From a virus (lineage: Duplodnaviria > Caudoviricetes), in IMG/VR virus record IMGVR_UViG_3300031578_009556, positions 1-27,308 of that record: 27,308 nt of DNA. The stretch is one strand, 5' to 3'. A program made the translations under genes and the position numbers. Below the pieces are notes generated by a model. The model was not told the DNA's origin. It searched no databases and was given only the letters and a program-made list of their open reading frames with translations. Within the stretch, counting starts at the first letter, position 1. Each line of letters opens with the position of its first letter. Positions 11,451 to 27,308 of this stretch are shown in pieces.

Positions 11451-11637
11451 TAAACAATTTATTGCCCATAAAGGATTTATCGATGCCTGTCGTAATGCAG
11501 GCATTCCAACAACAACCAGGCAAGCAAGCAAGTTCCAAATGCAAAAAGGACTCGCCTTCAAAGTATCAACTGGAAAAGCCAAAGTCTTGAAGAATTCAGA
11601 TGGAAAATTCATCAAAATTACAAATCAAATATTATGA
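11440..11637 (+). CDS. Small basic phage hypothetical protein
   Basis: AGGAG RBS; FIDACRNAGIPTTTRQASKF..KGLAF. Confidence 0.75.
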   Translation: MTTNKQFIAHKGFIDACRNAGIPTTTRQASKFQMQKGLAFKVSTGKAKVLKNSDGKFIKITNQIL

Positions 11638-13004
11638 CATTAACCCTCACAATAAAAAACCAAATTAAGATTCCATACGTCAATGAGCCATTAGATGAAT
11701 TTCTCTATAGCTCATTGACAATGCTCAACCCGAAGTGGCTGGAAAATGAGAGAATGAAACGATGGAATCGGGATACTCCAAGAAAACTCTACTTCTATAA
11801 TGAAGAAGGGGAAAATGATCTTTTTGTGCCCAGGGGTTTTTTAAAAGGCATCGTTGAATATTGTGATGAAAACCAAATTGAATTTGAAATTAATAATCAA
11901 ACCCACATATTCGAAGACATAAATTTTGATTTTTCTGGTGTCCTTCGCCCCTTCCAAGAAATCGCAGTTGAAAAAATGCTGCCTGAAAACGAAGGAGTAT
12001 TATGTGCGCCAACTGGATCAGGCAAAACAGTTATTGGAATTTACATGATTGCAAAGAGAAAACAGCCCACCCTCATAATCGTCCACACAAAAGAATTACT
12101 TGATCAGTGGACGGACAGGATCAAAACCTTCCTGAACGTCTCCAGTAAAAGAATTGGTCATATAGGCAACGGATACCTTGATGAAGATAAGGACATAACC
12201 ATTGCCCTGATCCAAACCCTGAGTAAATACCCTGAGATCGTAAACGATTATGGATTTTTGATAATTGATGAGTGTCACCACACACCGAGTCGAACGTTCA
12301 CGGCAGCAACAAAACTTTTTGAAGGAAGATATATTCTTGGTCTATCTGCCACGCCTTACAGGAGGGATGGCCTTTCCAAAATCATAGAATGGTATTCAGG
12401 CCCAATCAGGCACAAGATCGATCCACGAGACTTGATAAACAGCGGCCACATTACCTCTGTTGAAACAGTAATCAGGAAAACAAATTTCATTGCCTCAATG
12501 CCAGACCCCTCAGCAGAATATTCTACGCTGCTACAAGAATTATCTCAAAATGAGGAACGCAACCAGATGATTGTCAGTGACGTATTAACTACCGTTGCAA
12601 TGGGAGAAACTTGCCTTGTGCTAACAGATAGAAAAGCCCATTGCCAGGAATTGAAAGATATGGTCCAGGCAAAATCTAAAATCAAAACAGAAGTTCTGAC
12701 AGGGGATGTTCCTGCCGAGCCAAGAAAAAGGATCGTTGAAGATATAAATTCAGGCAAGATAAAGGTCTTGATCGCAACTTCTCAACTTATCGGCGAAGGA
12801 TTCGACTGCAAAAAACTATCGGCTTTATTTTTAACATTGCCAATAAGGTTCCCTGGCCGGGTCATTCAATATTTGGGAAGGGTATTGCGGCCAGCCAAAA
12901 ACAAAGACCGGGCACTTGTGTTTGATTATTTCGATCAGAATGTTCGTGTTTTATATGCAGGAATGAAAGCCCGGAAAAGGGAATATGAAAAATTAACAAT
13001 TTAA
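11634..13004 (+). CDS. SF2 DEAD/DEAH-box helicase (ResIII/UvsW-like)
   Basis: LRPFQ, APTGSGKT, DECHH, LSAT, EGFD and QYLGRVLR motifs. Confidence 0.92.
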   Translation: MTLTLTIKNQIKIPYVNEPLDEFLYSSLTMLNPKWLENERMKRWNRDTPRKLYFYNEEGENDLFVPRGFLKGIVEYCDENQIEFEINNQTHIFEDINFDFSGVLRPFQEIAVEKMLPENEGVLCAPTGSGKTVIGIYMIAKRKQPTLIIVHTKELLDQWTDRIKTFLNVSSKRIGHIGNGYLDEDKDITIALIQTLSKYPEIVNDYGFLIIDECHHTPSRTFTAATKLFEGRYILGLSATPYRRDGLSKIIEWYSGPIRHKIDPRDLINSGHITSVETVIRKTNFIASMPDPSAEYSTLLQELSQNEERNQMIVSDVLTTVAMGETCLVLTDRKAHCQELKDMVQAKSKIKTEVLTGDVPAEPRKRIVEDINSGKIKVLIATSQLIGEGFDCKKLSALFLTLPIRFPGRVIQYLGRVLRPAKNKDRALVFDYFDQNVRVLYAGMKARKREYEKLTI

Positions 13005-13016
13005 AGGGAGAAGGAA

Positions 13017-13256
13017 ATGGAAAAAATTATCACTAAATTTCATGAAAACAAATCACACTCAAGAGAATTTAATCAAACATTTAACACCAATCTCTCCAAT
13101 TTTCTTAATCCTCTAACTGGATTTGACATTATTGCCTTTGATGACCGTCTTAAAAATCAATATGGAAACTATGAGGATGGTAAAACAAGCATGTCAGATT
13201 TCATCAAGAAAAAGTTTGGTGAAAATGCAATCAAACTGATAGATAAACTGATTTAA
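13017..13256 (+). CDS. Hypothetical protein
   Basis: GGAG RBS; 79 aa. Confidence 0.75.
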   Translation: MEKIITKFHENKSHSREFNQTFNTNLSNFLNPLTGFDIIAFDDRLKNQYGNYEDGKTSMSDFIKKKFGENAIKLIDKLI

Positions 13257-13289
13257 ACAAAGAACAAAAACATTTAAAAGGAGGAAGAA

Positions 13290-13481
13290 ATGGAAGCAAA
13301 TATTAAAATTTATGATGAAGATGTTTATGATTTGTTGAACAAAATAGATCAGCACTGTCGAGAAGTAGATAAAGGAAAATATGGTCTCCCTCCTAAAGAT
13401 AATGCAATCAAAAGTATTGTTTACCACTGGCTTTATCAAAAAAATCAAAAAAAAATAACCCAAATCTCTTCTGGATTATAA
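13290..13481 (+). CDS. Hypothetical protein
   Basis: AGGAGG RBS; 63 aa. Confidence 0.7.
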   Translation: MEANIKIYDEDVYDLLNKIDQHCREVDKGKYGLPPKDNAIKSIVYHWLYQKNQKKITQISSGL

Positions 13482-13525
13482 AATGTCATTCAATGCCAAG
13501 CAATTTAAAAAAAGGAGACCTCAAC

Positions 13526-13906
13526 ATGGAAAATTTTGATAGACATATATTTCTATATGCAAAAGGGCACTACAAAAAAACCAATGCAATAGAGGATATG
13601 AAGAAAATCTTAGGTAAAAGAAGCGGTCTTTCTCCAGAGCATATTTCTGATGAAGATATAAATTATGTTCTCCTTGACCTCATTTATTCTTACACCAAGA
13701 AAAAAGATTCTTTCATCCGTTTCATTTTTACCCTCCACCCGCACAATGCATGGGAGCACGGTTGCCCAATAAAAGCATCATACGATTTTGAAAAAGTTTT
13801 AATCAGCGCTTGTTTATCAGTGCTAAGGTTTCAAGATATAAAAGATATTCCTTTTGGCCTCGGAAGACCAGATCCAACCATCTTGCCACTAACAAAGAAG
13901 AACTAA
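13526..13906 (+). CDS. Hypothetical protein (start re-called at ATG 13526)
   Basis: AGGAG RBS before ATG 13526; ends 1 nt before the primase start. Confidence 0.75.
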   Translation: MENFDRHIFLYAKGHYKKTNAIEDMKKILGKRSGLSPEHISDEDINYVLLDLIYSYTKKKDSFIRFIFTLHPHNAWEHGCPIKASYDFEKVLISACLSVLRFQDIKDIPFGLGRPDPTILPLTKKN

Positions 13907-13907
13907 A

Positions 13908-14798
13908 ATGCCATTTAATGCCCAACAGTTTTGTGCAGATCATAATCTCCCCACTGCCCCTGCCGGACACCAGCACTTCCGGCAGGGCTGGGTCAACATA
14001 AAATGCCCTTTTTGCAGTGGCTCCCCCGGCTGGCATCTCGGTTTGAATATTGAAAAGGCATATTGCACCTGTTACCGTTGTGGAGGCCACTGGTTACCCA
14101 AAGTCGTTTCAACTATACTTAAAATATCCATCAGTCAGGCAAATGCTGCTCTCAAACCCTATCTATCCGGGGAACAAACATACGAATTCAGGGAAAAACA
14201 CTATGCAGAGAAAATCACATACCCTCCAGACACAGGCCCCATGACCCCCAGGCAAAGGGCATATCTAGAAAGCCGTAACTTTGACCCAGACAAACTTGAA
14301 CAAGAATGGAGCCTACTTGGAGTTGGCAATTTTGGAACATACAAAAATCGAATTCTTGCCCCAATATACCTGCATAACCAATTGATCAGTTATCAGACAA
14401 GAGATATAACTGGTAAACAACATGCAAAATACATGGCCTGTCCCGAAGATGAAGAAGTCTATTGCCACAAATATACATTATATGGAATCGATAATTGCCA
14501 TAGCAAAACTGTAATTGTTGCTGAGGGAATGTTTGATGTGTGGAGATTAGGATTTGGTGCAGTGGGAACTTTTGGAATTAATTATTCACCACAGCAAATC
14601 TTAATGCTTGCACATCAATTTGATCGAATATTTGTCTTTTATGACAATGATGAACAAGGGCAACAAAAAGCAAATGAGATGGCAGAAGATCTGTACAAAT
14701 TTGGAAAGGAATGTGAGATCATCACAAATCCAAATGGAGATCCCGCAGATATGAAAGAAAAAGATGCAAACAATTTAATGAAGGAGATCGGATTATGA
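13908..14798 (+). CDS. DNA primase (zinc finger + TOPRIM)
   Basis: CPFC...CYRC zinc finger; IVAEGMFD and YDND TOPRIM motifs; GDPAD. Confidence 0.9.
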   Translation: MPFNAQQFCADHNLPTAPAGHQHFRQGWVNIKCPFCSGSPGWHLGLNIEKAYCTCYRCGGHWLPKVVSTILKISISQANAALKPYLSGEQTYEFREKHYAEKITYPPDTGPMTPRQRAYLESRNFDPDKLEQEWSLLGVGNFGTYKNRILAPIYLHNQLISYQTRDITGKQHAKYMACPEDEEVYCHKYTLYGIDNCHSKTVIVAEGMFDVWRLGFGAVGTFGINYSPQQILMLAHQFDRIFVFYDNDEQGQQKANEMAEDLYKFGKECEIITNPNGDPADMKEKDANNLMKEIGL

Positions 14799-15472
14799 GA
14801 ATAAATAGAAAAACAATAGTTATTTTGACCATGACATTTTTATTAATTTTAGGATTTTCAATCAAGAATGCCCAAGGCAAAGGAAAAGGTTTTCTTGACT
14901 TAATTCGGCAAATTGATAACAGAGAATCAAGAGATAAAATAGTAGGCCAAACCTACATGTGCGGAGGCAATACCGACTGCGTAGGATATTTCACACTAAT
15001 TCAATTTTACGAGCCGGATTCCCTCATCTTTTCCTATATTATCCCATCCTATACCTATTATAGATCAAGGCGAGGGTCACGAGGAATAAGGCTCCCTCCT
15101 AATATCAATGATCCCAACTATACACGTCGACAATGCGACGGAGTATTTCCAGATGGAACTCTTATAATGATGAAAGTCCCAAAAGAGATGTTTGAAAAGG
15201 CAAGAAATCAATCCTCAGCAATCGGCGAGACTAAAATACACCAAATCAACTGGTGCAAAGAATTTGAAGCCAAGTGGGACATTGACATAGACACACAAGT
15301 TTTTCTTAGTGATCTTTACGTAGTGAAAGATATCATCAAGATGAAAAAAACAGATGGATCTATCATAGTAGTACCAGTAATAGAGCATTATAAATTCGGG
15401 GCTACACCAGAACAACTTGAATGGCTCAGAAACATTGGAATAAAATGGAATGAGTGGAGAAAGAATCAATAG
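14795..15472 (+). CDS. Hypothetical exported or membrane-anchored protein
   Basis: Basic N-terminus plus hydrophobic stretch (TIVILTMTFLLILGFSI) then KNAQG, like a signal peptide; ATGA overlap. Confidence 0.7.
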   Translation: MRINRKTIVILTMTFLLILGFSIKNAQGKGKGFLDLIRQIDNRESRDKIVGQTYMCGGNTDCVGYFTLIQFYEPDSLIFSYIIPSYTYYRSRRGSRGIRLPPNINDPNYTRRQCDGVFPDGTLIMMKVPKEMFEKARNQSSAIGETKIHQINWCKEFEAKWDIDIDTQVFLSDLYVVKDIIKMKKTDGSIIVVPVIEHYKFGATPEQLEWLRNIGIKWNEWRKNQ

Positions 15473-15502
15473 AAATTTATTTAAAAAAAATAATTTTTTT
15501 CC

Positions 15503-15531
15503 TTGACCTTTTTTTAAATTTATTTTATAAA
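15503..15531 (+). promoter_or_regulatory. Sigma-70-type promoter upstream of the initiator leader
   Basis: TTGACC (15503-15508), 17-nt spacer, TATAAA (15526-15531), preceded by A/T tracts. Confidence 0.55.
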
Positions 15532-15580
15532 GTAAAAGATACGAAGCGAAAAGGCTCCCTGCTTTCTCCTTTCGTGATAT

Positions 15581-15651
15581 GGCTGCCATGTGGGCCAACA
15601 TGGTTTCCGGGGGTGAGTACCTTGTCTACTCACCCTCAGCCCTTTTCTTTT
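15581..15651 (+). ncRNA. Structured leader RNA (three-way junction, C4/CI-antisense-like architecture)
   Basis: GGCTG/CAGCC closing stem, CCATGT/ACATGG hairpin, GGGGTGAGTA/TACTCACCCT hairpin, then a U-rich tail. Confidence 0.6.
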
Positions 15652-15679
15652 AACCTTTGACAAGGGGAGGTGCCAAAAA

Positions 15680-16978
15680 TTGGCTGAATATGATATCAAA
15701 AATGAGCCTATTGTTGTCTCAAAACTTCTTCTAGACATTTTCTTAAACCCCAAATCAATTAAATACCATAAATCAAATTATCCTGCTGATCTAATTTCTC
15801 TTTATATTTTCTACTATTATACAGCAAAATGGCAAAAGACAAACTCCGTCCGGGCAACAACAGAATATGTTGCAAAAGGATTAAAGTGGTCTGCTGATCG
15901 AGTTCGTCAAAGAAAAAAAGAGCTAATAGCACTCGGTTTGATAGAAGATCGTATTTCAAAGGACCCAGAAACCAAACAGATCAAGGGACATTATGTTTTA
16001 GTCAAATTCATCTGGAGCCATAATACAATTGATTCCCAGACTCTGGAAAAGCCTGAGTCTGGGAAGACCCCTAGTCTGGAAAATCATGAGGGAAATGCTT
16101 TAAGTAATAATAATAGAAATGCTCTGAAGGTTACTTTAGTAACCTTAACGGATTCTTGCGAATCCGAACAAGGATTATTAAACTCTTCAGGTAATGAACC
16201 TCTCATATTAGAATCAAAGAAAATCCCTCCCAACTCCCTTCAATATAATCTCCTCAACTTTTGGAACAATCTTCCAGGCATCCCCACCAAACATGTCAAA
16301 CCCAATACCAAAGTGCGGTTAACCGCAGCAAGGTATTTTACCCAACTTGCCTCTGGTCGCTTTGCTGATGGCAAGAAATTTAAACCAGGTTTTTTCAACG
16401 AACATAAACTTTCCTCATCTATACTTGCTAAGCAATGGACAAGGGAAGAGATAAAGTCAGGGCTAAAAAGACTTAGTAACATTTTCATTGAGGGGTATTG
16501 GCCCCGGAACAAAGATACCTTGCCAAAGGATCTTGCAACCCTACTTTATAACCCCGGCAATCAAAATAGCTGGTTTCTGATGGTCATAGGACAGGAGCCA
16601 GAGCTATTGGATAACTCTGTCAATTTTAAACCCGAAAACCATAAAGCAGCAAAACAACACCCGGATATCATCTGGCAGATAATAAAGCAGTTCCAGGACA
16701 AGCAAGTTTTTGATCATGATATAACTGCAAAGACAATGGATGAAATCAATTCAATAATCGAGTATCACTCGCATATGGACTTCTCCAATAACATGGCAAA
16801 TTATAGGTGGGGCAACCTGCGACAGATGATTGATGACTTCTGTAATTTTATTATTTCTAAATCTTACCTAGAAAACAGTATAATAAATATATCAGCAGAA
16901 GGAAAACTTTTTCAGGCCTTTATTGACGAATGCGAGGATGAATTGTATGGACGGGCAAGATTGAGGCCGAAGGGATAA
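15680..16978 (+). CDS. Putative phage replication initiator (N-terminal winged HTH)
   Basis: TTG start after GGGGAGG; ATTEYVAKGLKWSADRVRQRKKELIALGLIE HTH; repeat-containing linker; located between primase and DnaB. Confidence 0.7.
   Translation: MAEYDIKNEPIVVSKLLLDIFLNPKSIKYHKSNYPADLISLYIFYYYTAKWQKTNSVRATTEYVAKGLKWSADRVRQRKKELIALGLIEDRISKDPETKQIKGHYVLVKFIWSHNTIDSQTLEKPESGKTPSLENHEGNALSNNNRNALKVTLVTLTDSCESEQGLLNSSGNEPLILESKKIPPNSLQYNLLNFWNNLPGIPTKHVKPNTKVRLTAARYFTQLASGRFADGKKFKPGFFNEHKLSSSILAKQWTREEIKSGLKRLSNIFIEGYWPRNKDTLPKDLATLLYNPGNQNSWFLMVIGQEPELLDNSVNFKPENHKAAKQHPDIIWQIIKQFQDKQVFDHDITAKTMDEINSIIEYHSHMDFSNNMANYRWGNLRQMIDDFCNFIISKSYLENSIINISAEGKLFQAFIDECEDELYGRARLRPKG
16033..16166. repeat. 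Iteron/palindrome block inside the initiator gene (candidate origin)
   Basis: TCTGGRAA at 16042, 16058 and 16075; perfect inverted repeats 16033-16043/16055-16065, 16127-16135/16138-16146 and 16149-16155/16160-16166; AT-rich tract between. Confidence 0.6.
16941..16971 (+). repeat. 31-bp direct repeat, copy 1 (3' end of initiator)
   Basis: AATTGTATGGACGGGCAAGATTGAGGCCGAA; 29/31 identical to 18639-18669. Confidence 0.9.
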
Positions 16979-17004
16979 AATAATATAAAAGAAGGAGAAA
17001 AATT

Positions 17005-18051
17005 ATGAGAATTGAAGTAAAAAAGATTAAACCAAACCCGTTTAGAGACTTAACAAAGTACAAGATTGACTCCTATAAAGTAGATGCCCTTGTCACCTCT
17101 ATAAGAGAGACTTCCTTCTGGGACAATATTCTTGCCCGCCCTATGGATGGAAAATATGAAATTGCCTATGGCCATCACCGCCTTTTTGCCATTCAAAAGG
17201 TTGGGCTGGAAAAGGTGGATATCCCTGTTAGAGAATTGGATGATGCCACTATGATCAAGATCATGGCTAATGAAAACCTTGAAGAATGGAAATTGAACCC
17301 TTCCGTTATAAAGGAATCAGTAAGAGTGGCTAAGCATTATCTGGATGGCGAGCTGGCGAAGTGTGAGAGCTGGGAGAAATTAAAGAAAACCAATTTTAAT
17401 CTAATAAAAATATTAGATTTAAAATTTGACAAGCAGCCAGAAAGAGGATTCCAAATCCTTAAAGGAAAAGGTGTCGGCCAGACCACAATCCTCAAGTTCC
17501 TGGGAGGAAATTGGAAACAGTGGATGGTACAGGAAGCTCTTGCTCAGTTGAAGGAATCTGAATCTATGCAAGAGGCTGTTGAGGTTTTTGATACTCAGAC
17601 AGATGCCACTGAATTTAGGAAGATTATCAAAAAGGAGTTCAAAGATAAAGTCCCTAAAGGAAAAGAAAAAGAAGTGGCAGAGAGGGTGGCCGAAAAGGTA
17701 AGGGAAAAGAAAGGCCAAATTAAGAAGGGAGAAAAGACAGGCAGACATGATTATCGCCAAGACATGAAAACCTTTACTCGTATGGCTGTGGAGAACATAC
17801 CGGAAAAGGAGGCCAAACTAAAAGATATTCAATCAGAGATTGAAAGGTTTAATGAGCGGATAAGGACGGCCTACATAGGATCAAGAGACTTAAATTCGCT
17901 TCTTCAAGAATTGGAAGTTAAGAAGATTGAAGGGGTGAAATCTTTGTTTATTTTGGATAGTGTCTTTGATTTGTTACAAGAATTAAAGAAAACATTAGCT
18001 TTTTTTGGGTATGATTACCAACATTTACAATTGAAACAAAAGGAGGAATGA
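17005..18051 (+). CDS. ParB/Srx N-terminal-domain protein
   Basis: PNPFR...LVTSIRE...YEIAYGHHRLFA...ANENL ParB-N motifs; helical charged C-terminus. Confidence 0.85.
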   Translation: MRIEVKKIKPNPFRDLTKYKIDSYKVDALVTSIRETSFWDNILARPMDGKYEIAYGHHRLFAIQKVGLEKVDIPVRELDDATMIKIMANENLEEWKLNPSVIKESVRVAKHYLDGELAKCESWEKLKKTNFNLIKILDLKFDKQPERGFQILKGKGVGQTTILKFLGGNWKQWMVQEALAQLKESESMQEAVEVFDTQTDATEFRKIIKKEFKDKVPKGKEKEVAERVAEKVREKKGQIKKGEKTGRHDYRQDMKTFTRMAVENIPEKEAKLKDIQSEIERFNERIRTAYIGSRDLNSLLQELEVKKIEGVKSLFILDSVFDLLQELKKTLAFFGYDYQHLQLKQKEE

Positions 18052-18052
18052 A

Positions 18053-18637
18053 ATGGACTTTTTAGTAAAAAATGGAAATAAAGAAGAATATTGGAAGAGG
18101 ATAAAAGATGTCGCCCAGAAGCTTCATGAAAAGGCAGATGATCTCAGAAAAAAAGGAGAGACTTCTTTGACTCTCACCTGGGAGACCTTTTCCTTTGATG
18201 ACTATATGAAGGCAGGGCAGCCCTCAAGCCCCTTAGAAGAAAAATATTGGAAAGAGAAAAGGGCTAATATGTGGAAAGATGATGTTAATAAGGAGTTTTG
18301 TGATCGTGGATTTTCCGAATGGCTATTTGTTGAACCTGCAAAAGGGATTAGATTAGAAATTGACAGAATTGCAGATATGAAGCTTGTGCTCCAATCTATA
18401 AAGAAAATCTGTAGCACAAGCGATGGGAGAAGTGAACTTTTGATGCAAGCAAGCGAGCGCTGCACAGGAAAGAGGAAAAAGAGATTACAACAAGTAGCAC
18501 ATCTTTTGGGACCAGAAACATTACTGCCATTTATAGCAGGGTCGATTCAATTAGAGCCCTCCCTGACAATTTCGCAGAAAAACGAATTGTTGAATATGAT
18601 CGGGGAATATTCTTCAGACGAAGACGAAGAGAATTAA
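18053..18637 (+). CDS. Hypothetical protein coupled to the ParB-domain gene
   Basis: AGGAGG RBS; starts 1 nt after the ParB stop. Confidence 0.8.
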   Translation: MDFLVKNGNKEEYWKRIKDVAQKLHEKADDLRKKGETSLTLTWETFSFDDYMKAGQPSSPLEEKYWKEKRANMWKDDVNKEFCDRGFSEWLFVEPAKGIRLEIDRIADMKLVLQSIKKICSTSDGRSELLMQASERCTGKRKKRLQQVAHLLGPETLLPFIAGSIQLEPSLTISQKNELLNMIGEYSSDEDEEN

Positions 18638-18638
18638 A

Positions 18639-18669
18639 AATTATATGGCCGGGCAAGATTGAGGCCGAA
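18639..18669 (+). repeat. 31-bp direct repeat, copy 2 (orphan initiator C-terminus LYGRARLRPK*)
   Basis: AATTATATGGCCGGGCAAGATTGAGGCCGAA followed by ATAA (in-frame stop). Confidence 0.9.
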
Positions 18670-18696
18670 ATAATATACGGTCTGTTAGGAGGCGTA

Positions 18697-18867
18697 ATGG
18701 CAAAGATTATCTATCAACTAAGCGAAGAGGATAGATTAACAAACCACATACCAGAAGGGGTATGGCAATTAACCCATGAGCATGATGTTTTCATAGAGGA
18801 TTTCAAAACAAAAGAACTTATATCTGTTTTAGATTTGTGTTCGCCTAACAAACCAAACAAGGATTAA
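18697..18867 (+). CDS. Small hypothetical protein (56 aa, not in track)
   Basis: AGGAGG RBS; MAKIIYQLSEEDRLTNHIPEGVWQLTHEHDVFIEDFKTKELISVLDLCSPNKPNKD. Confidence 0.65.
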   Translation: MAKIIYQLSEEDRLTNHIPEGVWQLTHEHDVFIEDFKTKELISVLDLCSPNKPNKD

Positions 18868-18934
18868 CCTTGACCTACCCCTACAAAATAGTATCCCCCA
18901 AGAAAAGGGGGGATAAAAAGGAAGGAGAGGTGAG

Positions 18935-19207
18935 GTGATGGATGAAAAACGATTAAGAACACGATGGCGTAGATGGTTAGGAAATAAAACGGCTACTAAT
19001 AAACCGTATTGGACCGACCTTTTAGATTCAAATTGGTCTAGTTGGTGCAGACGTGTCTGCCAGAATCACGGAATCGGAATTGAATATGAAATGGGTTGGA
19101 CAAAAGAATCTGTAAAATCTATGTATCGTTTTTGTATAGATATTGCAACAATAGAAGAATTGATGAATCTGGATGGTATCTATGCTGCTGAGAAGGCTGG
19201 AATTTGA
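18935..19207 (+). CDS. Hypothetical Trp-rich protein
   Basis: GGAGAGGTGAGG RBS region; start may be ATG 18938. Confidence 0.7.
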   Translation: MMDEKRLRTRWRRWLGNKTATNKPYWTDLLDSNWSSWCRRVCQNHGIGIEYEMGWTKESVKSMYRFCIDIATIEELMNLDGIYAAEKAGI

Positions 19208-19244
19208 AACACTCCGGAGCCCTCGCAACCAGGAAAGGAGAACC

Positions 19245-19649
19245 ATGACCCACGAGCAACAAAACGATTTTCTGGCAACTGAGGCAATGGATTGGCATCT
19301 CATAGATCTTGACGGATGGACACCGGTATATCAAGACATCCCTACAGTGACAGGGGTTTGGTGGGCAGATAAAGAAAATAAGCTCATCATCTTATACAAG
19401 GACTGGAACCCTACCTCAAACTTCGAGCAGGCGATGATGGTAGCCAAACAACTAAGGATAAAGCATTCATTATGGCTGACCCTACATCAAGTACCGAGCA
19501 AAACCGCTGAATGGCATGCATATTTTACTTTTGGGGGTATGGCAGTTGGGAATAGGATGCGGGGAGAGGCTTATTCCTCGAAGGATGAGCCCGCCCAGGC
19601 CATATGTGCCGCCGCTATCAAAGCGAAGGGGGGGGAGTATGTTTTTTAA
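19245..19649 (+). CDS. Phage ABA-sandwich/BC1872-like protein (start re-called at ATG 19245)
   Basis: AGGAG RBS; LATEAMDW...WNPTSNFEQAMMV...PAQAICAAAIKA pattern. Confidence 0.7.
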   Translation: MTHEQQNDFLATEAMDWHLIDLDGWTPVYQDIPTVTGVWWADKENKLIILYKDWNPTSNFEQAMMVAKQLRIKHSLWLTLHQVPSKTAEWHAYFTFGGMAVGNRMRGEAYSSKDEPAQAICAAAIKAKGGEYVF

Positions 19650-19842
19650 TCGTTGCTGCCCTAACTGTGACAAAGAATGGAATTATTATCGTGGTGCTGT
19701 TGAACATGGCCTAGGTGGTCAGCAGTTAGAACCGGATGAGGCCGATTGCCCTCATTGTGGGTTCTACTGGCAACAGCGCGTTAAAAACCCACCGATAAAA
19801 GAAATGGTTGAGAGGTTCAGGAAGGCGAAAGGGGGTGAGTAG
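19639..19842 (+). CDS. Small zinc-ribbon protein (start re-called at ATG 19639)
   Basis: CPNC...CPHC; G-rich RBS. Confidence 0.7.
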   Translation: MFFNRCCPNCDKEWNYYRGAVEHGLGGQQLEPDEADCPHCGFYWQQRVKNPPIKEMVERFRKAKGGE

Positions 19843-19989
19843 GTGAGACCAGAAAAGTTATGTCTCGGAGAAAAAGGACGTTATAAGCGTTATCTGAAAA
19901 AAATTGCTAACCGATGGAGACGCAGGACAGAGAAAAAATTGCTCGACAACGCTCCGAAGAAAAATGAGTACAAGGGGTGGAGTTTATAA
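19843..19989 (+). CDS. Small basic protein (48 aa, not in track)
   Basis: GTG directly after the previous stop; MRPEKLCLGEKGRYKRYLKKIANRWRRRTEKKLLDNAPKKNEYKGWSL; TAATG coupling to the next gene. Confidence 0.65.
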   Translation: MRPEKLCLGEKGRYKRYLKKIANRWRRRTEKKLLDNAPKKNEYKGWSL

Positions 19990-20186
19990 TGCCCACACGA
20001 GAGCAAAAGAAATGCCCCATTTGTGGTAGCCCAATTAATTATGTATATGAACAAGGCAAGGGTTTCACAGTTTACGAATGCACAGGCAATGATTGTCTGC
20101 CATGGCCTGTCGGAGGGGCAAGGAAGAGACGAGAGGCAGGGCTGCCACCAATTATACCAACAAGATTTGAAAAGAGAAATATATGA
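19989..20186 (+). CDS. Small zinc-ribbon protein (start re-called at ATG 19989)
   Basis: CPICG...YECTGNDC; coupled on both sides. Confidence 0.65.
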   Translation: MPTREQKKCPICGSPINYVYEQGKGFTVYECTGNDCLPWPVGGARKRREAGLPPIIPTRFEKRNI

Positions 20187-20740
20187 AATTAAGAAAAGAG
20201 GATTGTTGGATTCAAACCTATACAGGAAAACGATTCTTTCTCTTTAACCCAACTCCTGAAGCAATTGATATAATCGACATTGCCCATTCTCTTGGAAAGA
20301 AATGCCGATTCAACGGCCATACAATCAATGGAAATTACTCAGTTGCTGAACATAGTTTGTTGGTTTGCAAACTTCTGGAAGATATTTGTGAATCGGCTGC
20401 TTTATGGGGACTGTTGCACGATGCCTCAGAAGCATACACTGGAGACATACCTAGTCCAATCAAACCTTTTTTAAACGGATTCAAAAAGATCGAAAGAGAT
20501 ATTCAAAAATGCATCGCTCAAAAATTTAACTTACCCTGGCCGATGCCAAAAATTGTGAAATGGGCAGATATTACTCTTCTAACAAATGAAGCGAATGTTG
20601 TTATGAGAACCCCTCATCCTGCAAAGTGGGGAACAATCCAGAAATGGCTCCCGTTTGGAATCAAAACTAATAACTGGAATTGGCAGGAAGCAACTGAAGA
20701 ATTTTTAAATAAATGTGCTTATTTTGGTATAATTAAATGA
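20183..20740 (+). CDS. HD-domain phosphohydrolase (YfbR/YfdR-like 5'-deoxynucleotidase)
   Basis: DIAHSL..CRFNGH, YSVAEHS, LLHDASEAYTGDIPSPIK, VKWAD. Confidence 0.9.
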   Translation: MKLRKEDCWIQTYTGKRFFLFNPTPEAIDIIDIAHSLGKKCRFNGHTINGNYSVAEHSLLVCKLLEDICESAALWGLLHDASEAYTGDIPSPIKPFLNGFKKIERDIQKCIAQKFNLPWPMPKIVKWADITLLTNEANVVMRTPHPAKWGTIQKWLPFGIKTNNWNWQEATEEFLNKCAYFGIIK

Positions 20741-20982
20741 TCCGCTGTAAAAAATATCCATACAAAAATAGAAAAGAGGCCCAAGCAACGTTGAAGTTCC
20801 GACAAGAACTTCCTTTTGGTACTCCGTATCGTTGCCAAATTTGTGGATACTGGCATTTAGGGCACAAAAACAAGACTCCAAAAAAGAGTCCCTTGGGCAG
20901 AATCTATAGGAAAAGGGCAGTTGAAAGGCGGCACCTGAACAGATTATTTCAAGCGATTGATGAAATGTGTGGGGTTGAATAA
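20737..20982 (+). CDS. Small zinc-finger phage protein
   Basis: CKKYPY...EA...YRCQICGYWHL. Confidence 0.75.
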   Translation: MIRCKKYPYKNRKEAQATLKFRQELPFGTPYRCQICGYWHLGHKNKTPKKSPLGRIYRKRAVERRHLNRLFQAIDEMCGVE

Positions 20983-22346
20983 TGGAAGATTATGATCGGT
21001 TTTTAGAGAGGAAATCTCAGCTCGGTTCCAATTTTGGATTTGATCCTATTTTTATGCCGGATTTTCTTTTTGATTTTCAAAGGAGCCTTGTTGATTGGTC
21101 AATTAGAAAAGGGAGGTCTGCTATCTTTGCTGATTGTGGAATGGGCAAAACACCAATGCAATTAGTCTGGGCAGAGAATATTGTAAGAAAAACTAACAAA
21201 AGAGTATTGATCGCAACTCCATTGGCAGTAGGCTGTCAAACAGTTCGAGAAGGGGAGAAGTTTGGAATTGAGGTAATAATGTCAAAAGATGGAACCCCGA
21301 AGGAGAAAATAACCGTCACAAATTATGAAAGGTTGCATTTATTTAACTCCTCTGATTATGAAGGGTTTGTATCTGACGAGTCTGGCATTCTTAAAAATTT
21401 TGATGGAGCACGTCGAAAAACAATTACAGAATTTGTAAAAAAAATGCCTTACCGTTTATTGTGCACTGCAACGGCGGCTCCTAATGATTACATCGAATTA
21501 GGGACCTCTTCAGAGTCCCTTGGAATAATGGGTTATATAGACATGCTTAACCGATTCTTTAAAAATGACAATAATACCTCAGCCCTAAATAGATTCCATG
21601 GACAAGCTAAACAATGGAGGTTTAAAAGGCACGCAGAACAACCGTTTTGGGAATGGGTTTGCTCATGGGCAAGGGCGATTAGAAAACCGTCAGATATGGG
21701 ATTTGAAGATGGAAAATTTATTTTGCCCCCCCTTATAGAAAAGGAAACCATCATTCATTGCTCAAGGCCCTTAAACGGGGGGTTGCTTGTTGAACCTGCA
21801 AAAACTTTGAAAGAGCAAAGACAAGAGAGAAGAATGACCCTTAGAGAAAGATGTGAAATGGCAGCTAGCAAAGTTGCTGATGACAAAATTGCAATTGTTT
21901 GGTGTCATCTAAATGACGAAGCAGATTTGCTCGAAAGAATTATACCTGAAGCAAAACAAGTAAGTGGACCGATGACAGACGACAGGAAAGAGGAAATTCT
22001 TGTTGAATTTTCCGATAGCAATTTGCGGGTTTTGATTACCAAGCCCCGCATAGGAGCCTTTGGATTGAATTGGCAACATTGTTCACACATGACTTTTTTC
22101 CCATCTCATTCATTTGAACAGTATTATCAAGGGACAAGAAGATGTTGGCGATTCGGTCAAAAAAAGCCCGTTACAGTTGATATTATAACAACAGAAGGAG
22201 AATTGAGAGTGTTAAAAAATCTTCAGAAGAAAGCAAAGGCCGCTGATAAAATGTTTTCTTCTCTCATCAAATATATGAACAACTCAGTTGAAATAAAAAA
22301 AGAAGAAGGCTACAACGAAAAAGAAAGGATTCCATTATGGATGTAA
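20982..22346 (+). CDS. SNF2-like SF2 helicase
   Basis: DCGMGKT, DESG, TAT, GLNWQ and QGTRRCWRFGQ motifs. Confidence 0.9.
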   Translation: MEDYDRFLERKSQLGSNFGFDPIFMPDFLFDFQRSLVDWSIRKGRSAIFADCGMGKTPMQLVWAENIVRKTNKRVLIATPLAVGCQTVREGEKFGIEVIMSKDGTPKEKITVTNYERLHLFNSSDYEGFVSDESGILKNFDGARRKTITEFVKKMPYRLLCTATAAPNDYIELGTSSESLGIMGYIDMLNRFFKNDNNTSALNRFHGQAKQWRFKRHAEQPFWEWVCSWARAIRKPSDMGFEDGKFILPPLIEKETIIHCSRPLNGGLLVEPAKTLKEQRQERRMTLRERCEMAASKVADDKIAIVWCHLNDEADLLERIIPEAKQVSGPMTDDRKEEILVEFSDSNLRVLITKPRIGAFGLNWQHCSHMTFFPSHSFEQYYQGTRRCWRFGQKKPVTVDIITTEGELRVLKNLQKKAKAADKMFSSLIKYMNNSVEIKKEEGYNEKERIPLWM

Positions 22347-23293
22347 TAAATCAAAAAATTGAAGACAAATATGCAATTTACCAAGGGGATTGTATTGATG
22401 TTATGAAACCCATTCCTGATGAGAGAATTCACCTTTCTGTATATTCTCCCCCGTTTGGAGGGTTATATCATTATTCATCTTCTGAACGAGATTTATCAAA
22501 CTGCAAAGATTATAAGCAGTTTTTTGAGCATTATGGGTATGTAGTTCAAGGGTTGTTCAGAATAACCTTGCCGGGGAGGATTACAGCGGTCCATTGTATG
22601 GATGTTCCGACTGGTAATAGCGGTAGAGATCATCTCACTGACTTCCCAGGGGATATAATTCGATTACATGAAAAAATCGGTTTTGAATATATCTCCCGCT
22701 ATTCAGTATGGAAAGAACCCCTTGGAGTTCGCAATCGTACAATGGCTAAAAACCTTGCCCATAAAACGATTGTTGAAGATTCTTCTTTATGTAGTGTCGC
22801 ATCGGCAGATTATCTTGTATGTTTTCGTAAAAAAGGAGAAAATAAAATTCCTATAGCCCATCCCCAGGGGTTGACAGAGTATGCAGGGGCAAGAAAGATT
22901 CCACCAGATCTATTGAAATATAAAAATTACAGAGGAAATCAAATTGAAAATCGTTATTCACATTGGATTTGGAGGCAATACGCTTCTGCCTTTTGGGATG
23001 ATGTTCGGATTAAAAACGTTCTACCTTTCAAAAGATCAAAAGACGAGAAGGATGAAAAACATATACACCCTTTACAACTCGATGTAATCGAACGATGCAT
23101 AATTCTTTGGAGCAATCCGGGGGAAACAGTTTTCACTCCATTTATGGGGGTCGGGTCAGAGGTCTATGGAGCAGTTGTCAATAATCGAAAAGGGATAGGG
23201 ATAGAATTGAAAACATCATATTATCGGCAAGCAGAAAAAAATCTTTTACGGGCTGTTGCTAATGTAGGTGAAATTAAGGGGTTTGGACTATAA
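22337..23293 (+). CDS. DNA methyltransferase, N4-C/N6-A family (beta class)
   Basis: GDC, YSPPF catalytic motif, HIHPLQ, PFMGVGS, GIELK. Confidence 0.9.
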   Translation: MDVINQKIEDKYAIYQGDCIDVMKPIPDERIHLSVYSPPFGGLYHYSSSERDLSNCKDYKQFFEHYGYVVQGLFRITLPGRITAVHCMDVPTGNSGRDHLTDFPGDIIRLHEKIGFEYISRYSVWKEPLGVRNRTMAKNLAHKTIVEDSSLCSVASADYLVCFRKKGENKIPIAHPQGLTEYAGARKIPPDLLKYKNYRGNQIENRYSHWIWRQYASAFWDDVRIKNVLPFKRSKDEKDEKHIHPLQLDVIERCIILWSNPGETVFTPFMGVGSEVYGAVVNNRKGIGIELKTSYYRQAEKNLLRAVANVGEIKGFGL

Positions 23294-23937
23294 TGTTAAC
23301 CCCATATTTTGAAACTAAATTAGGCAAGCTATATCACGGAGACTGCCTTGAGATAATGCCGCACCTTGATCCGGTGGACTTGGTGTTGACTGACCCGCCG
23401 TATGGAGTCGATAAAGCAGAATGGGACACCGGATATGTTTCGGTTGAACCGATGCTTATTCAAAAAGCCGCCGGGGTAATTATAAATTGTGGAGAACAAA
23501 ACATCGCTACCTGTGTCAATGCCCTTGGCGACAATTACAGGGGTCTTTTTTATGGATGGAACATGAACGGAATGACAAGGGGGCCGCTTGGATACATGAA
23601 CATAATCCTTGCTGTTTGCGGTGGAAAATTAAAGCGGGGCATGAATATTTGTAAGTTTACAATAAAAGACCTGACTCGCAAAAACCATCCGTCACCAAAA
23701 CCGATTGAATATTATCGTGAAGTTTTGTTTCGGTTTTCAGATGAAAATCAATCTATTCTTGACCCCTTCCTTGGCAGCGGTACGACCGCCGTAGCCTGCG
23801 AGTACCTTAACCGCCGATGGATAGGAATTGAAATTGAAGAAAAGTATTGTGAAATAGCAGCAAAAAGGATTGATGAAGTAAATTTCGGGTTGCAACAAGT
23901 ATCAGAAGGGAAGCCACCAGAAGGATTGATATATTAA
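23293..23937 (+). CDS. DNA methyltransferase, N6-adenine type (beta class)
   Basis: HGDCL, TDPPY, HPSPKP, DPFLGSGTT, GIEI. Confidence 0.93.
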   Translation: MLTPYFETKLGKLYHGDCLEIMPHLDPVDLVLTDPPYGVDKAEWDTGYVSVEPMLIQKAAGVIINCGEQNIATCVNALGDNYRGLFYGWNMNGMTRGPLGYMNIILAVCGGKLKRGMNICKFTIKDLTRKNHPSPKPIEYYREVLFRFSDENQSILDPFLGSGTTAVACEYLNRRWIGIEIEEKYCEIAAKRIDEVNFGLQQVSEGKPPEGLIY

Positions 23938-25527
23938 ATGACAGAAATCATCCGCCGGAAACCGGCAATTGATTCTCGCATCGAGAGGTCTATCCTTACA
24001 GGCATGATTACATCGGAAAGGTTTCTCACTGAGATTCAATCTTTCTATCGCCCAAATATTCTCCGCAGTGATTTTGCCAACACTGTTGCTGAATGGTGCC
24101 AGGACTATTATCAACGATACAAAAAACCGCCTGCAAATGCAATCGAGGACATTTTCAGAACACACCGAGAAAGGCAACTTGAACCTGCACAAGCAGAATT
24201 AATCGAGACTTTTCTTTCCAGCATCAGTCAAGAATATGAAACAGGAGAGAAATTTAATGCTCCTTATATTCTTGATCAAGCGGAAAAGCATTTCAGACTT
24301 TCTGCATTAGAGAATCATAGGTTTGAATTATCTAAGTGCATTGCCGGGGGGAGAATCGATGATGGAGAAGCATTGGTTGCAAACTTCAAAAGGGTAGCCA
24401 GGCAAGAAATCAAAGGTATTGACCCTTTTGATGAGAAATCAATTATAAATGCCTTGGATGAAAACAGAGGAGATGTCCTTTTTAAATTACATGGTGCCCT
24501 TGGTAAGGCCGTCGGCAGCCTTGAGAGAGGTCACCTTTTCGCTGTTGTCGGAGCCTCTGGAATTGGGAAAACGTGGTGGTTATTATATATTGCTCTAAGG
24601 GCTTTGTTCAGTGGATACCGGGTCTTGTTTGTGAGCCTGGAAATGAGCGAAAGACAAATAATCCAGCGTATTCTTCACTGGCTCACTGGATTGCCAAAGG
24701 AGAAATATGCCGGGCAGGTATTGATACCTGTTTTTGATTGCATAAAAAATCAGACAGGAGAATGTGATGATGGCTGCAAGGTTTCGCTAATTGAGAAAGG
24801 GGCAAAAGATAAATCCTATTTCAACAGGCCAGATTTTAAGCACGCTCCAAAAGGCTATAAACCGTGCACTGAATGTATGGGGACAGCGGCTTTTCAACCA
24901 ACCTCGTGGTATAAAGAAAGGGAATTTTTGGATAAAGAGATTAGAAAGATGAGGAAAGAAAGCGAAAGAAAAGTCCATGAATTTCTTGAAATTCCAACAG
25001 CAATAAAAAAGAAAAAGGCAATTGAGCGGCTTGCAGCCGTCCGTAATAAACGTCTAAAAATTGCTCAGTTTCCTTCTGGCGAATTAACTATGCAAGGGTT
25101 TGAAACTTACCTGGACAACCTGGAATATTATGAAGGTTTTGTTTCCGATGTGATTATAACTGATTATGCAGATAAATTCAAACGATCAGAGCGAGAATAC
25201 CGGCATGGAATAAATGAAATTTGGGAAGGCCACAAGGCAATCGCCCAGAAAAGGCATTGCCTGGTGGCAACTGGTAGCCAGTCCAGTGCAGCCCGGAGCG
25301 GAAGGGATACTAAACGAGGAGATTGGGCAGAGGATATCAGAAAACTGAATTTGATTGATGTCGGTTTTGCAATCAACCAGAATGATTGGGAACATGATAA
25401 TCATATTTACAGATGTGGAGTTGCAAAACAGAGACATGACGAATTTTCCTTGGTCGGGCAGATAATGGTTTTAAATCAATTGAGGATTGGAAGACCGTAC
25501 ATTTCATCGTATCAGATGATAGGATAA
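23938..25527 (+). CDS. Replicative DNA helicase, DnaB/SF4-like, with a Cys-rich insertion
   Basis: Walker A GASGIGKT, FVSLEMSE, IITDYAD, ATGSQ, AED, KQR. Confidence 0.85.
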   Translation: MTEIIRRKPAIDSRIERSILTGMITSERFLTEIQSFYRPNILRSDFANTVAEWCQDYYQRYKKPPANAIEDIFRTHRERQLEPAQAELIETFLSSISQEYETGEKFNAPYILDQAEKHFRLSALENHRFELSKCIAGGRIDDGEALVANFKRVARQEIKGIDPFDEKSIINALDENRGDVLFKLHGALGKAVGSLERGHLFAVVGASGIGKTWWLLYIALRALFSGYRVLFVSLEMSERQIIQRILHWLTGLPKEKYAGQVLIPVFDCIKNQTGECDDGCKVSLIEKGAKDKSYFNRPDFKHAPKGYKPCTECMGTAAFQPTSWYKEREFLDKEIRKMRKESERKVHEFLEIPTAIKKKKAIERLAAVRNKRLKIAQFPSGELTMQGFETYLDNLEYYEGFVSDVIITDYADKFKRSEREYRHGINEIWEGHKAIAQKRHCLVATGSQSSAARSGRDTKRGDWAEDIRKLNLIDVGFAINQNDWEHDNHIYRCGVAKQRHDEFSLVGQIMVLNQLRIGRPYISSYQMIG

Positions 25528-25551
25528 AAAAATATTAAAAAACTCTTCAAG

Positions 25552-25578
25552 ATTTGAACGGCTTTTCAGTATAATAAG
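25552..25578 (+). promoter_or_regulatory. Conserved promoter-like motif, copy 2
   Basis: ATTTGAACGGCTTTTCAGTATAATAAG, intergenic, upstream of the RBS and ATG 25625. Confidence 0.65.
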
Positions 25579-25624
25579 TTAAAGGATAAAATAAACAATC
25601 AAACAAAAAAAAGGAGAAAGAAAG

Positions 25625-26161
25625 ATGAAAGCAAAAGACATTACCAAAAAATTATTTGCAGATGCCTGCGACGACCTGAATGCCGTCATGAAACTGGACC
25701 CTCCCATTCCAACCGATCCAGAGGCCAAGGAAGTGACCAAGGCCACATTGGAAGCTGACTTGAGAGAGGCAGCAGCAGAATTGCAGGTGGACGATGTTTT
25801 AAAGCCCAAGACGGTTGAAGTGCTGGAGACATTGGGGGTTGAGGTACCGAAGGCAGGGACAGTGGAAGCGGGAGAAGAAAAGAAGGAAGAGAGAAAGGAA
25901 GAGAAAGAGGAAAGTCCTCTGAAAAATCAATCTACCAAACAGCCCAAATTTACACGTATTCAGGCAGTTGGTCAAGCCTTCCTTGATGCCCCCAAAGATG
26001 GCATCAGTCGAGATAATCTGGTTACTGCGTCAGATAAGATTTATGCTGATAAAGGCGGCAAATCCAACTCCAAGGAAGCAAAGTGGTCAGTCAAGCTATT
26101 TTTGGATGTTCTCGGTTCAGTTTCCTTGATTAAGGAAGTTGAAGGAAAGTTCAGTTCATAA
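25625..26161 (+). CDS. Hypothetical protein (acidic N-domain, charged linker, small C-domain)
   Basis: AGGAG RBS; 178 aa. Confidence 0.85.
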   Translation: MKAKDITKKLFADACDDLNAVMKLDPPIPTDPEAKEVTKATLEADLREAAAELQVDDVLKPKTVEVLETLGVEVPKAGTVEAGEEKKEERKEEKEESPLKNQSTKQPKFTRIQAVGQAFLDAPKDGISRDNLVTASDKIYADKGGKSNSKEAKWSVKLFLDVLGSVSLIKEVEGKFSS

Positions 26162-26165
26162 GAAA

Positions 26166-26831: not shown

Positions 26832-27308
26832 GACACGGATTGTCCATTCGTGGTGATTCTTTATACTGTCCTCTCGCCTTATCATTAGATACATATTCAA
26901 ATTGTCTTTGCGATTGTTGGCATTGTTATTTGCGAAGACTAAACTATGTTTGGGGAGATGCTTTGAACCCGGTTAATCCAGAAGATCTAAAACGCAAATT
27001 GCAAAACGGCTTGAATAACCCAAAGCCAAAATCCAGTCTCGCATGGGCATTGAAAAGAAAAGTCACCATTCGATTTGGCAATAAATCAGACCCTTTTCAA
27101 CCTATTGAAGAAACATATAGATCTTCTGAAGCGGCATTGCGAGTGTTATCCGATTTAAAATGGTCCTACGTGCTCCAAACTAGAAATACACACATCCTCA
27201 TACAATACGAAGAGATCGTTGTAAACAACGTGGGAAATTTTGTTTTCCTGCCGATCATAAGCCCAGGGGCAGAGATGGATTGGGAAGTTTTAGAGAGGAA
27301 AAGGACTA
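26828..27308 (+). CDS. Radical SAM protein, spore-photoproduct-lyase-like, partial (runs off the right edge; not in track)
   Basis: ATGA overlap; MRHGLSIRGDSLYCPLALSLDTYSNCLCDCWHCY has CxxxCxxC; IRFGNKSDPFQPIE; open to the window end. Confidence 0.85.
   Translation, partial: MRHGLSIRGDSLYCPLALSLDTYSNCLCDCWHCYLRRLNYVWGDALNPVNPEDLKRKLQNGLNNPKPKSSLAWALKRKVTIRFGNKSDPFQPIEETYRSSEAALRVLSDLKWSYVLQTRNTHILIQYEEIVVNNVGNFVFLPIISPGAEMDWEVLERKRT

Follow-up and report, generated by a model that had tools for sequence, protein, structure and literature searches.

A conserved leader RNA with a co-varying loop pairing at the ribosome-binding site of a putative phage replication initiator gene

In the 27,308-nucleotide (nt) stretch of viral DNA analyzed here (IMG/VR record IMGVR_UViG_3300031578_009556, positions 1 to 27,308; hereafter the window), the plus strand from 15538 to 15682 holds a conserved leader RNA of about 140 nt, which consists of a 5' hairpin, a three-way junction and a small hairpin over the ribosome-binding site (RBS) of the first downstream gene. 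This gene (15680-16978, plus strand) starts with TTG and encodes a 432-amino-acid (aa) DnaD/O-like protein, a putative replication initiator. The loop of the second junction hairpin is complementary to the loop of the RBS hairpin, at the Shine-Dalgarno (SD) sequence, and the pairing between the two, judged by its co-variation among related leader sequences, is strongly supported. Initiators must be made in small, controlled amounts; plasmids use antisense RNAs and pseudoknots for this, and the phages P1 and P4 use leader-derived RNAs. To our knowledge, comparable RNA control of initiators in other phages has barely been described. An earlier, sequence-only reading of the window had proposed a structured leader RNA with a closing stem and two hairpins, one loop of which pairs with the RBS region and the other with the start codon. 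Its coordinates were correct for all elements, and the minimum-energy fold, the z-scores and the covariation in eight leaders bear out the structured RNA itself. The 5' hairpin, called hairpin A here, and the RBS hairpin (15653-15658/15666-15671), which has the target of the pairing as its loop, are elements beyond that account.

The junction is the minimum-energy fold of positions 15575-15652 in RNAfold (-30.9 kcal/mol, z-score -3.5); for 15538-15700 the z-score is -3.9 and none of 200 shuffled sequences folds as well. It is closed by the stem P1, formed by GGCUG (15581-15585) and CAGCC (15637-15641). Inside it, hairpin 1 (15586-15603) has six base pairs (bp), CCATGT (15586-15591) with ACATGG (15598-15603), and the loop GGGCCA (15592-15597), and hairpin 2 (15609-15637) has 9-11 bp, with arms at 15609-15619 and 15627-15637 and the 7-nt loop CCUUGUC (15620-15626), loop 2 in what follows. 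These elements are given by the fold and by an alignment (A9) of eight sequence-related leaders from uncultivated phages, those of the window and of the loci L245, L002, L235, L237, L008, L004 and L220. In this alignment 96.8% of the 156 cells are paired and 15 of the 20 pairs change on both sides. The shares by helix are 92.3% and three of five pairs for P1, 95.8% and three of six for hairpin 1, and 100% and nine of nine for hairpin 2. None of 500 shuffles matched the values of A9, and controls with the helices slid out of place gave 27-45% paired cells and two or three double-changed pairs. Natural variants of the window leader in the sequencing run X7 carry T15618C together with A15628G, which turns a U-A into a C-G pair, and T15636C, which turns a G.U into a G-C pair; from the G.U pairs and these compensatory variants it follows that the fold lies on the plus-strand RNA. 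Among the sequencing runs listed as carrying the sequence, none is an RNA run. The stem of hairpin 1 is wholly different in L008 (ACGGUU/AACCGU), and it is also replaced in L013, which together with L022 represents a structural analogue with the same architecture and no sequence similarity.

Hairpin A (15541-15575, plus strand) precedes the junction and begins a few nt after the predicted transcript start. It has 13 pairs and the loop UCCCU in the minimum-energy fold, and it is predicted at the same place, with different stem sequences, in L002, L235, L237, L004, L220 and L013; L008 lacks it. In the five closest leaders the loop sequence CUCCC (15556-15560) is complementary to the SD bases GGGAG (15665-15669). 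L237 changes both sides of this match (GCCCU with AGGGU); L220 shows it weakly, L004 not at all, and L008 lacks the hairpin itself. The loop may be a second anti-SD sequence or the match may be chance, and we leave the idea as unsupported.

Loop 2 is the exact complement of GACAAGG (15659-15665, plus strand), which forms the loop of the RBS hairpin and whose last two bases are the first G's of GGGGAGG (15664-15670). The sequence-only reading had recognized this pairing at the RBS, and it was found to co-vary in the relatives. The window and L245 pair CCUUGUC with GACAAGG, L002 pairs CCAUUAC with GUAAUGG, L235 CCUAUUU with AAAUAGG, L237 CCUGUUU with AAACAGG, L008 CCUGUUA with UAACAGG, L004 UUGCA with UGCAA and L220 CUGUG with CACAG. 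Complementarity is kept in all eight leaders, by five different 7-nt pairs and two 5-nt pairs, and the analogue L013/L022 adds one more (CCGACAA with UUGUCGG). When the loops of seven leaders (L008 not included) were compared with all targets, each matched its own over 7, 7, 7, 7, 7, 5 and 5 nt and foreign ones over 3-5 nt, with the exception of the window and L245, which share one loop/target pair. A 7-nt complement of the window's loop 2 arises within the 42 nt before the start codon in 0.19% of shuffles. By leader, the shuffling P lies between 0.0013 and 0.0031 where the match is 7 nt long and near 0.12 where it is 5 nt long, and two random 7-nt loops were fully complementary in 1 of 10,000 trials. 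In a second alignment (A10), fitted to the loop-2/target helix, six of the seven pairs change on both sides, and the rows of the window, L245 and L220 stand one column off register, so that this count understates the pairing. Covariation in homologous leaders, which the sequence-only reading had named as a check, is therefore seen in the junction and in the loop-2/target helix alike. The position of the target is also kept: it ends 10-14 nt 5' of the start codon in seven leaders (L008 not included) and in all leaders it adjoins the SD or reaches two G's into it.

One possible option is that the match between loop 2 and target does not reflect RNA pairing: it could be an inverted repeat that works as DNA, in operator half-sites or an origin element, or it could have arisen by chance. 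Arms that change together would mimic compensatory change, and initiators often bind repeats near their own genes. Yet the spacing between the loop-2 and target arms varies from 23 to 32 nt, one arm always lies in the apical loop of a covarying hairpin and the other stands at a fixed distance from the SD and the start codon. The G.U pairs of the stems fit the plus-strand RNA only, and the chance of such a match is 1e-4 to 3e-3 per leader. Given the varying spacing and the G.U pairs that fit RNA only, a DNA-level operator is unlikely, and we find it hardly credible that the complementarity has an origin other than RNA pairing.

The relatives of the leader were collected by several searches. Viral contigs, scanned with the protein as guide, yielded 79 loci with a coding sequence for the initiator N-terminal domain, and nhmmer detected the leader in L002 (E 5e-20) and weakly in L004. 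A 15-base pattern matched at least 120 stretches in viral contigs and, among the matches listed, four have AACCTT at the right distance. A pattern of 21 bases, taken from three conserved blocks, was scanned in viral and metagenome collections; it fixes GGCTGCCAT, ATGGTT and AACCTT in the four of the eight leaders that were found with it. Three of its four viral matches are real and the fourth, L205, is coding DNA. The metagenome scan gave 41 matches, eight of which are leaders with six distinct sequences, and four leaders were new (L220, L235, L237, which is identical to L244, and L245); the other 33 have neither hairpin 2 nor an AT-rich promoter context and were judged by eye to be unrelated. 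A first covariance model (R1) missed L004. The second (R2), built from seven leaders and run on 98 sources, recovered its seven training leaders and L008 (E 5.5e-4), with five weak matches (E of 1.6 or more) that were ignored. Rfam at the gathering score reported nothing in the window or in 20 related loci. At E up to 10 the region 15350-15850 gave six weak, chance-level matches, and the C4-related models that the sequence-only reading had suggested for comparison were not among them. The leader is a real, conserved RNA that is absent from Rfam 15, and full-text literature searches, narrow in scope, turned up no account of a leader of this kind.

Between the junction and the target all eight leaders carry an anti-SD sequence, AACCUU(U) (15652-15658 in the window), which can pair with (G/A)AGGU(U/G), made up of the SD and the one or two bases behind it. 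It makes the 5' arm of the RBS hairpin, and the SD, GGAGG(U) (15666-15671), makes the 3' arm; the predicted pairs are A15653-U15671, C15654-G15670, C15655-G15669, U15656-A15668, U15657.G15667 and U15658.G15666. RNAfold predicts this hairpin locally in nine of nine leaders, at -3.7 to -6.0 kcal/mol in eight of them; for the window the value is -10.1 kcal/mol, to which another hairpin, formed over the start codon, contributes. Loop 2 and its target are both 7-nt hairpin loops in the five closest leaders, and they are mutually fully complementary. Loop 2 begins with CC in the window, L245, L002, L235, L237, L008 and L013, and since this CC pairs with the first GG of the SD core, the pairing would remove SD bases from the ribosome.

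The anti-SD is joined to P1 by a U/C-rich linker, CUUUUCUUUU (15642-15651, plus strand), which is 2-10 nt long in the relatives (2-4 nt between P1 and AACCUU in L002, L235 and L220) and is not a conserved terminator tail. The U-rich tail that the sequence-only reading saw behind the junction is present in the window and, as a run of U's, in L245 and L004, three of eight leaders; L002, L235, L237, L220 and L008 have none, and the X7 variants have deletions of 4-5 nt in it. On these grounds P1 with the U-run was rejected as an intrinsic terminator or attenuator of the family and, as the tail is not conserved, the release by termination of an RNA of 60-70 nt is not a family trait either.

From the fold, the anti-SD sequence and a co-varying pairing that reaches into the SD, we infer an occlusion of the RBS: pairing of the junction loop with the loop of the RBS hairpin would hold the RBS closed and lower the translation of the first gene, a mechanism to which we give about an even chance. 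The transcript would start at the predicted promoter and the junction would fold first, so that loop 2, with its 5'-CC and five variable nt, could capture the target as it emerges. Loop 2 and the AACCUU:GAGGU pairing would together cover the whole SD, and the junction, anchored at -21 to -15, would sit as a bulky body at -21 to -10, inside the footprint of the 30S subunit. The outcome would be a low, set-point expression of the DnaD/O-like initiator. The pairing would act at least in cis, and it may be modulated by a protein on hairpin 1 or by free leader RNA from other genome copies.

Several observations weigh against this occlusion mechanism. The direction of the effect on translation is only inferred, and in the plasmid ColIb-P9 a pseudoknot directly 5' of the SD activates translation (PMC4705826). 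The RBS hairpin has little stability, and in some folds the SD is contested by other pyrimidine runs. The 2-4 nt linkers of L002, L235 and L220 look too short for an unstrained cis loop-loop complex with a closed RBS hairpin; cis pairing in these leaders would probably need the hairpin to open, and GAGGU would then be freed. The junction and loop-2 counts come from model-fitted alignments (A9 and A10), and the invariance of bases fixed by the search pattern counts as evidence in the window, L002, L004 and L008 only. In the five closest leaders, moreover, P1, hairpin 1 and the lower stem of hairpin 2 are invariant (one version), whereas loop 2, the upper part of its stem and the target each occur in four or five versions; the linker is variable too. 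This is the pattern of a specificity determinant, and it favours some action in trans over a purely cis one.

One explanation for such a pattern is that the junction is released by processing or partial termination and works chiefly in trans, in the manner of P1/P7 C4 or P4 CI. Loop 2 would kiss the loop of the closed RBS hairpin on other transcripts and the loop/target pair would serve as a specificity code; less initiator would be made with every added genome copy, or the code would silence a superinfecting relative. Intermolecular kissing classically relies on a pair of 7-nt hairpin loops with exact complementarity, known from RNA I and RNA II of ColE1, where the 7-nt loops are fully complementary and their sequence variation sets specificity, as would be the case here. 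The ColE1 loops lie on two RNAs from opposite strands, whereas here both loops lie on one transcript. The variation in the upper stem of hairpin 2, loop 2 and target, with matches of 7 nt to the own and 3-5 nt to foreign targets, fits such a code, and it mirrors the a'/b' differences that separate P1 and P7 (PMC5320573). With linkers of 2-10 nt no cis geometry is kept, and the short ones would disfavour cis kissing with a closed hairpin. The architecture is C4-like as well, with a closing stem and two hairpins in an operon leader and a loop complementary to the RBS, and P1 begins with GGC, which is near the GGW site of RNase P in C4, a weak likeness (PMC5320573). Yet no conserved terminator follows the junction, the U-run being confined to three leaders and deleted in part in the variants, and the Rfam C4 model has no match here. 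The leader stands in a single copy in four of the five phage records searched (the fifth, that of the analogue L013, has none), and no extra target occurs at gene starts: GACAAGG is found six times in the window against 3.0 expected, with its other plus-strand copies inside open reading frames (ORFs) and none at another gene start, and the target occurs once per locus in the available sequence of L244, L002, L245 and L008. A cis loop 23-32 nt from its target should also outcompete a trans copy wherever the geometry allows. We regard a mainly trans-acting junction as a possibility, though a doubtful one.

Another hypothesis is that the pairing activates translation, as the pseudoknots of ColIb-P9 repZ and IncB/IncL-M repA do. 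The default would then be the closed RBS hairpin (AACCUU:GAGGU), with which the loop-2 pairing could not coexist in cis; capture by loop 2 would open this hairpin and free the SD, and a competitor for loop 2 would repress. The gene class and the geometry are the same, since in these plasmids, too, an upstream hairpin loop pairs just 5' of the initiator SD, and the TTG start of the window is weak (PMC4705826). On steric grounds the 2-4 nt linkers of L002, L235 and L220 would need an unpaired AACCUU for cis pairing, and the shortest linker with AACCUU measures 8 nt (L002), about the span of the 11-bp hairpin 2. On the other side, the target is the loop and not the stem of the inhibitory hairpin, and the two pairings therefore draw on different bases. 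With an RBS hairpin of low stability (-4 to -6 kcal/mol) and a strong SD (GGAGG), an activator seems unnecessary; in most members, moreover, the two leading G's of the SD core are taken up by loop 2 itself, and five leaders have ATG starts. Neither a conserved leader peptide nor a conserved antisense promoter was found. An ORF over the junction (ATG at 15579) was rejected as a leader peptide, for it is not kept in L002 or L004 and there are indels of 1-2 nt in loop 1 and in the strand between hairpins 1 and 2 (J2/3). The sole promoter-like site on the minus strand, 15835-15806 (9 of 12 positions), lies in a non-conserved coding region, and none was convincing as an antisense promoter. Promoter-like sites in the whole region are at a chance number, with no conserved -10 box visible by eye in four leaders. 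We consider an activating pseudoknot unlikely.

The junction could also be a sensor, either a riboswitch or a protein site (for example for the initiator), which decides whether loop 2 is free to pair. A three-way junction coupled to SD pairing resembles the pseudoknot translational riboswitches preQ1-II and SAM-II, in which a pairing of a loop with the 3' tail covers part of the SD, like in this leader. Those riboswitches have conserved ligand pockets and pseudoknot sequences, whereas here the junction strands vary and the pairing changes between close relatives. J2/3 reads UUUCC, UUUUCGG, UUAA or CAUA, the other junction strands have 0-2 nt, and almost all junction bases are paired. Nothing points to a ligand; the lack of conservation in J2/3 disfavours a ligand pocket. 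Hairpin 1 is invariant in the five closest leaders and loop 1 always contains a GC-only 4-nt palindrome, GGCC in the window, L245, L002, L237 and L008 and GCGC/CGCG in L235, L004, L220 and L013, which could be a self-kissing (dimerisation) site or a protein site. Its stem is fully replaced in L008 and L013, however, and no Rfam riboswitch matched. As the junction strands are short and not conserved a riboswitch is unlikely, and a sensor of any kind seems to us quite improbable.

Hairpin 1 had been given another role in the sequence-only reading, in which its apex GGCCAA (15593-15598) pairs with TTGGCT (15680-15685, one G-U) at the TTG start codon, nested with the loop-2 pairing. This second pairing is found in the window only, one of eight leaders; L245, L002 and L237 have the same loop 1 and no start-codon site for it. 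With the second pairing absent from seven leaders, the nested two-site arrangement does not hold. The TTGGCT of the window is the start codon with an Ala codon, and it is also paired locally with GCCAA (15672-15676). The resulting 5-bp hairpin GCCAA-AAA-UUGGC (15672-15684), which holds the TTG start, was not seen in relatives. It was also observed that AUGGUU at the 3' end of hairpin 1 (15600-15605) can pair with AACC(UU) of the anti-SD (15652-15657), and that the hairpin-1 5' arms of L008 and L013 contain a comparable 4-nt match to the anti-SD. The SD would be free in this possible alternative fold, which was spotted after the fact.

The leader works like C4/CI RNAs and like the rep pseudoknots of IncI/IncB plasmids and is a member of neither. 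With C4 of P1/P7 (RF01695) it shares its place, sense-encoded in the leader of the controlled operon, its closing stem with two hairpins, complementarity of one hairpin loop to the region around the RBS of the next gene, the first one downstream, and matched changes by which loop and target differ between related phages (PMC5320573). In C4 both loops (a' and b') target adjacent RBS sites, whereas here loop 2 does so in eight of eight leaders and loop 1 in one of eight; C4 also has an upstream copy of the targets (a1/b1), and no second copy was found in the leader here. Other differences are that the target described here is part of an SD hairpin, as its loop, at a distance of 1-11 nt from the junction, and that the controlled gene is a replication protein with a strong SD in uncultivated phages and not an antirepressor. 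C4 itself is processed by RNase P to an RNA of about 77 nt that acts in trans. We take the CI RNA of P4 to be a second system with the C4-like features listed above. The analogy to C4 and CI drawn in the sequence-only reading holds for the junction RNA in the leader, the RBS-complementary loop and the hypervariable pairs; it does not extend to membership, because there is no match to the C4 model, only one loop has a target and upstream decoy sites are missing.

The second likeness is to the repZ/repA leaders of IncI-alpha (ColIb-P9), IncB and IncL/M plasmids, where initiator translation is the controlled step, an upstream hairpin loop pairs directly 5' of the SD and the start codon is weak, as it is in the window (PMC4705826). 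The plasmid target lies in an inhibitory stem and the pseudoknot activates, whereas the target described here makes up the loop of the SD hairpin and extends into the SD. The plasmids need a leader peptide and an antisense Inc RNA and keep a conserved GGCG:CGCC core, in contrast to the hypervariable 7-bp helix described here and to the lack of any conserved leader ORF or antisense promoter found here. With its target in a loop and not in a stem and with no leader peptide, the leader is not an IncI/IncB switch; no antisense gene was found either.

The window, a piece of the genome of an AT-rich tailed phage that has not been cultivated, carries its terminase genes on the minus strand. The leader belongs to a plus-strand replication module (11634-25527) with helicases, a primase (13908-14798), a ParB-like protein, methyltransferases and a DnaB-like helicase, and it occupies a 207-nt gap between a 225-aa ORF that ends at 15472 and the 432-aa ORF. 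The GC content of this gap is 0.53, against about 0.2-0.44 in its surroundings. A sigma-70-like promoter is predicted at 15503-15531 (plus strand; TTGACC at 15503-15508, 17 nt, TATAAA at 15526-15531), with 10 of 12 consensus positions by separate scoring; our consensus promoter scanner did not list it, as its second hexamer ends in A. Similar boxes stand 46-49 nt 5' of P1 in the window, L002, L235 and L237, and L008 has TTGACC-17-TATAAT, an 11 of 12 match, 30 nt 5' of P1. A tRNA/tmRNA scan found none, and a GenBank phage collection gave no match at the DNA or protein level. Further downstream in the module, a 529-aa DnaB-like ORF (window 23938-27307 region) matches the DnaB_C profile over residues 188-257 only; behind it lie a 178-aa ORF and an HNH/NUMOD4 endonuclease (26139-26831). 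This mobile endonuclease may interrupt the DnaB-like helicase gene of the window.

The start of the 432-aa ORF was set by homologues that begin with MAEY.. or MAKQ... Residues 43-150 of the protein weakly match the DnaD-like helicase loaders of PHROG 186 (E 4e-4), and its N-terminal domain, with the motif FYYYTAKWQKTN, is common to hundreds of phage proteins, some of which also have Phg_2220_C or HTH_36. Look-alikes from a language model, which we treat as a lead only, carry HTH_36, DnaD_N or Phage_rep_O, and a Pfam and PDB profile search gave nothing useful. The DnaD-like PHROG match, the domains of the look-alikes and the position inside the replication module make a role as replication initiator or loader plausible. 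The proposal that the leader directly controls a replication initiator thus keeps its first half, a pairing in the RBS region of the first gene of a putative initiator operon, while the identity of the initiator is weakly supported.

The window's TTG is a weak start codon, and L002, L004, L220, L235 and L008 have ATG. The ATG of L235 stands 7 nt after the SD; the same place is ATT in L245 and ATA in L237, with no canonical start near, and the starts of L245 (about 170-175) and L237/L244 are either rare start codons or belong to decayed genes. In L002 the leader is followed by an inserted gene of 188 aa and then by the initiator. Genes between the leader with its SD and the initiator are T5orf172-like in L002 (419-985) and GIY-YIG-like in L245 (150-659), and L244 has a TnpB-like C-terminal remnant there (reverse strand, about 907-1161); a contig of run X7 diverges directly after the SD, at 15670. 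The site just behind the leader SD looks like a landing place of selfish genes that borrow its expression signals.

Loop-to-target leaders appear to be a general trait of this initiator gene family. Over the 320 nt that precede the initiator homologues, a hairpin loop with an exact downstream complement (at least 7 nt with at least three G/C, 8-90 nt downstream of the loop) occurs at 17 of 73 loci, against one of 73 in each of three control regions and an average of 0.7 in shuffles. Two further leader classes are among these loci. The second class has a terminator-like hairpin with an apical loop that is complementary to the loop of a hairpin further upstream, and the sequences differ from phage to phage. 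Its members are L014 (about 1335-1440), L026 (about 1353-1470), L070, L027, L030, L047, L062 and L057/L058; they share a conserved AGUAGGUG-N7/8-(U/C)ACUGAAA hairpin inside a longer stem, followed by a U-run, and Rfam matched none of the members that the scan of 20 loci covered, a set without L070. The third class (L010/L018, about 1365-1420) is GC-rich and has a co-varying pair, UCAUGGC with GCCAUGA in L010 and CCACGGC with GCCGUGG in L018, and its target is not at the SD.

The leader described here is a new structural variant of leader-RNA control of replication genes, and its class sits before a widespread family of phage initiators. A tentative extension is that these leaders, in at least three architectures, are sense-encoded lock-and-key RNAs, in which a hypervariable loop and its target make a phage-specific code; with it, the leader RNA from each genome copy would serve to count copies or to exclude related phages. 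The target would lie in a hairpin that blocks expression, which is the RBS hairpin here and the terminator-like hairpin in the sister class. If this is true, the leaders would be a phage analogue of the antisense copy control and incompatibility of plasmids, without an antisense gene. The natural pairs (targets GACAAGG, GUAAUGG, AAAUAGG, AAACAGG and UAACAGG) are ready-made specificity swaps. If the leaders do act in trans, these pairs would define incompatibility or immunity groups among uncultivated phages, and they would provide a compact set of orthogonal RNA lock-and-key parts.

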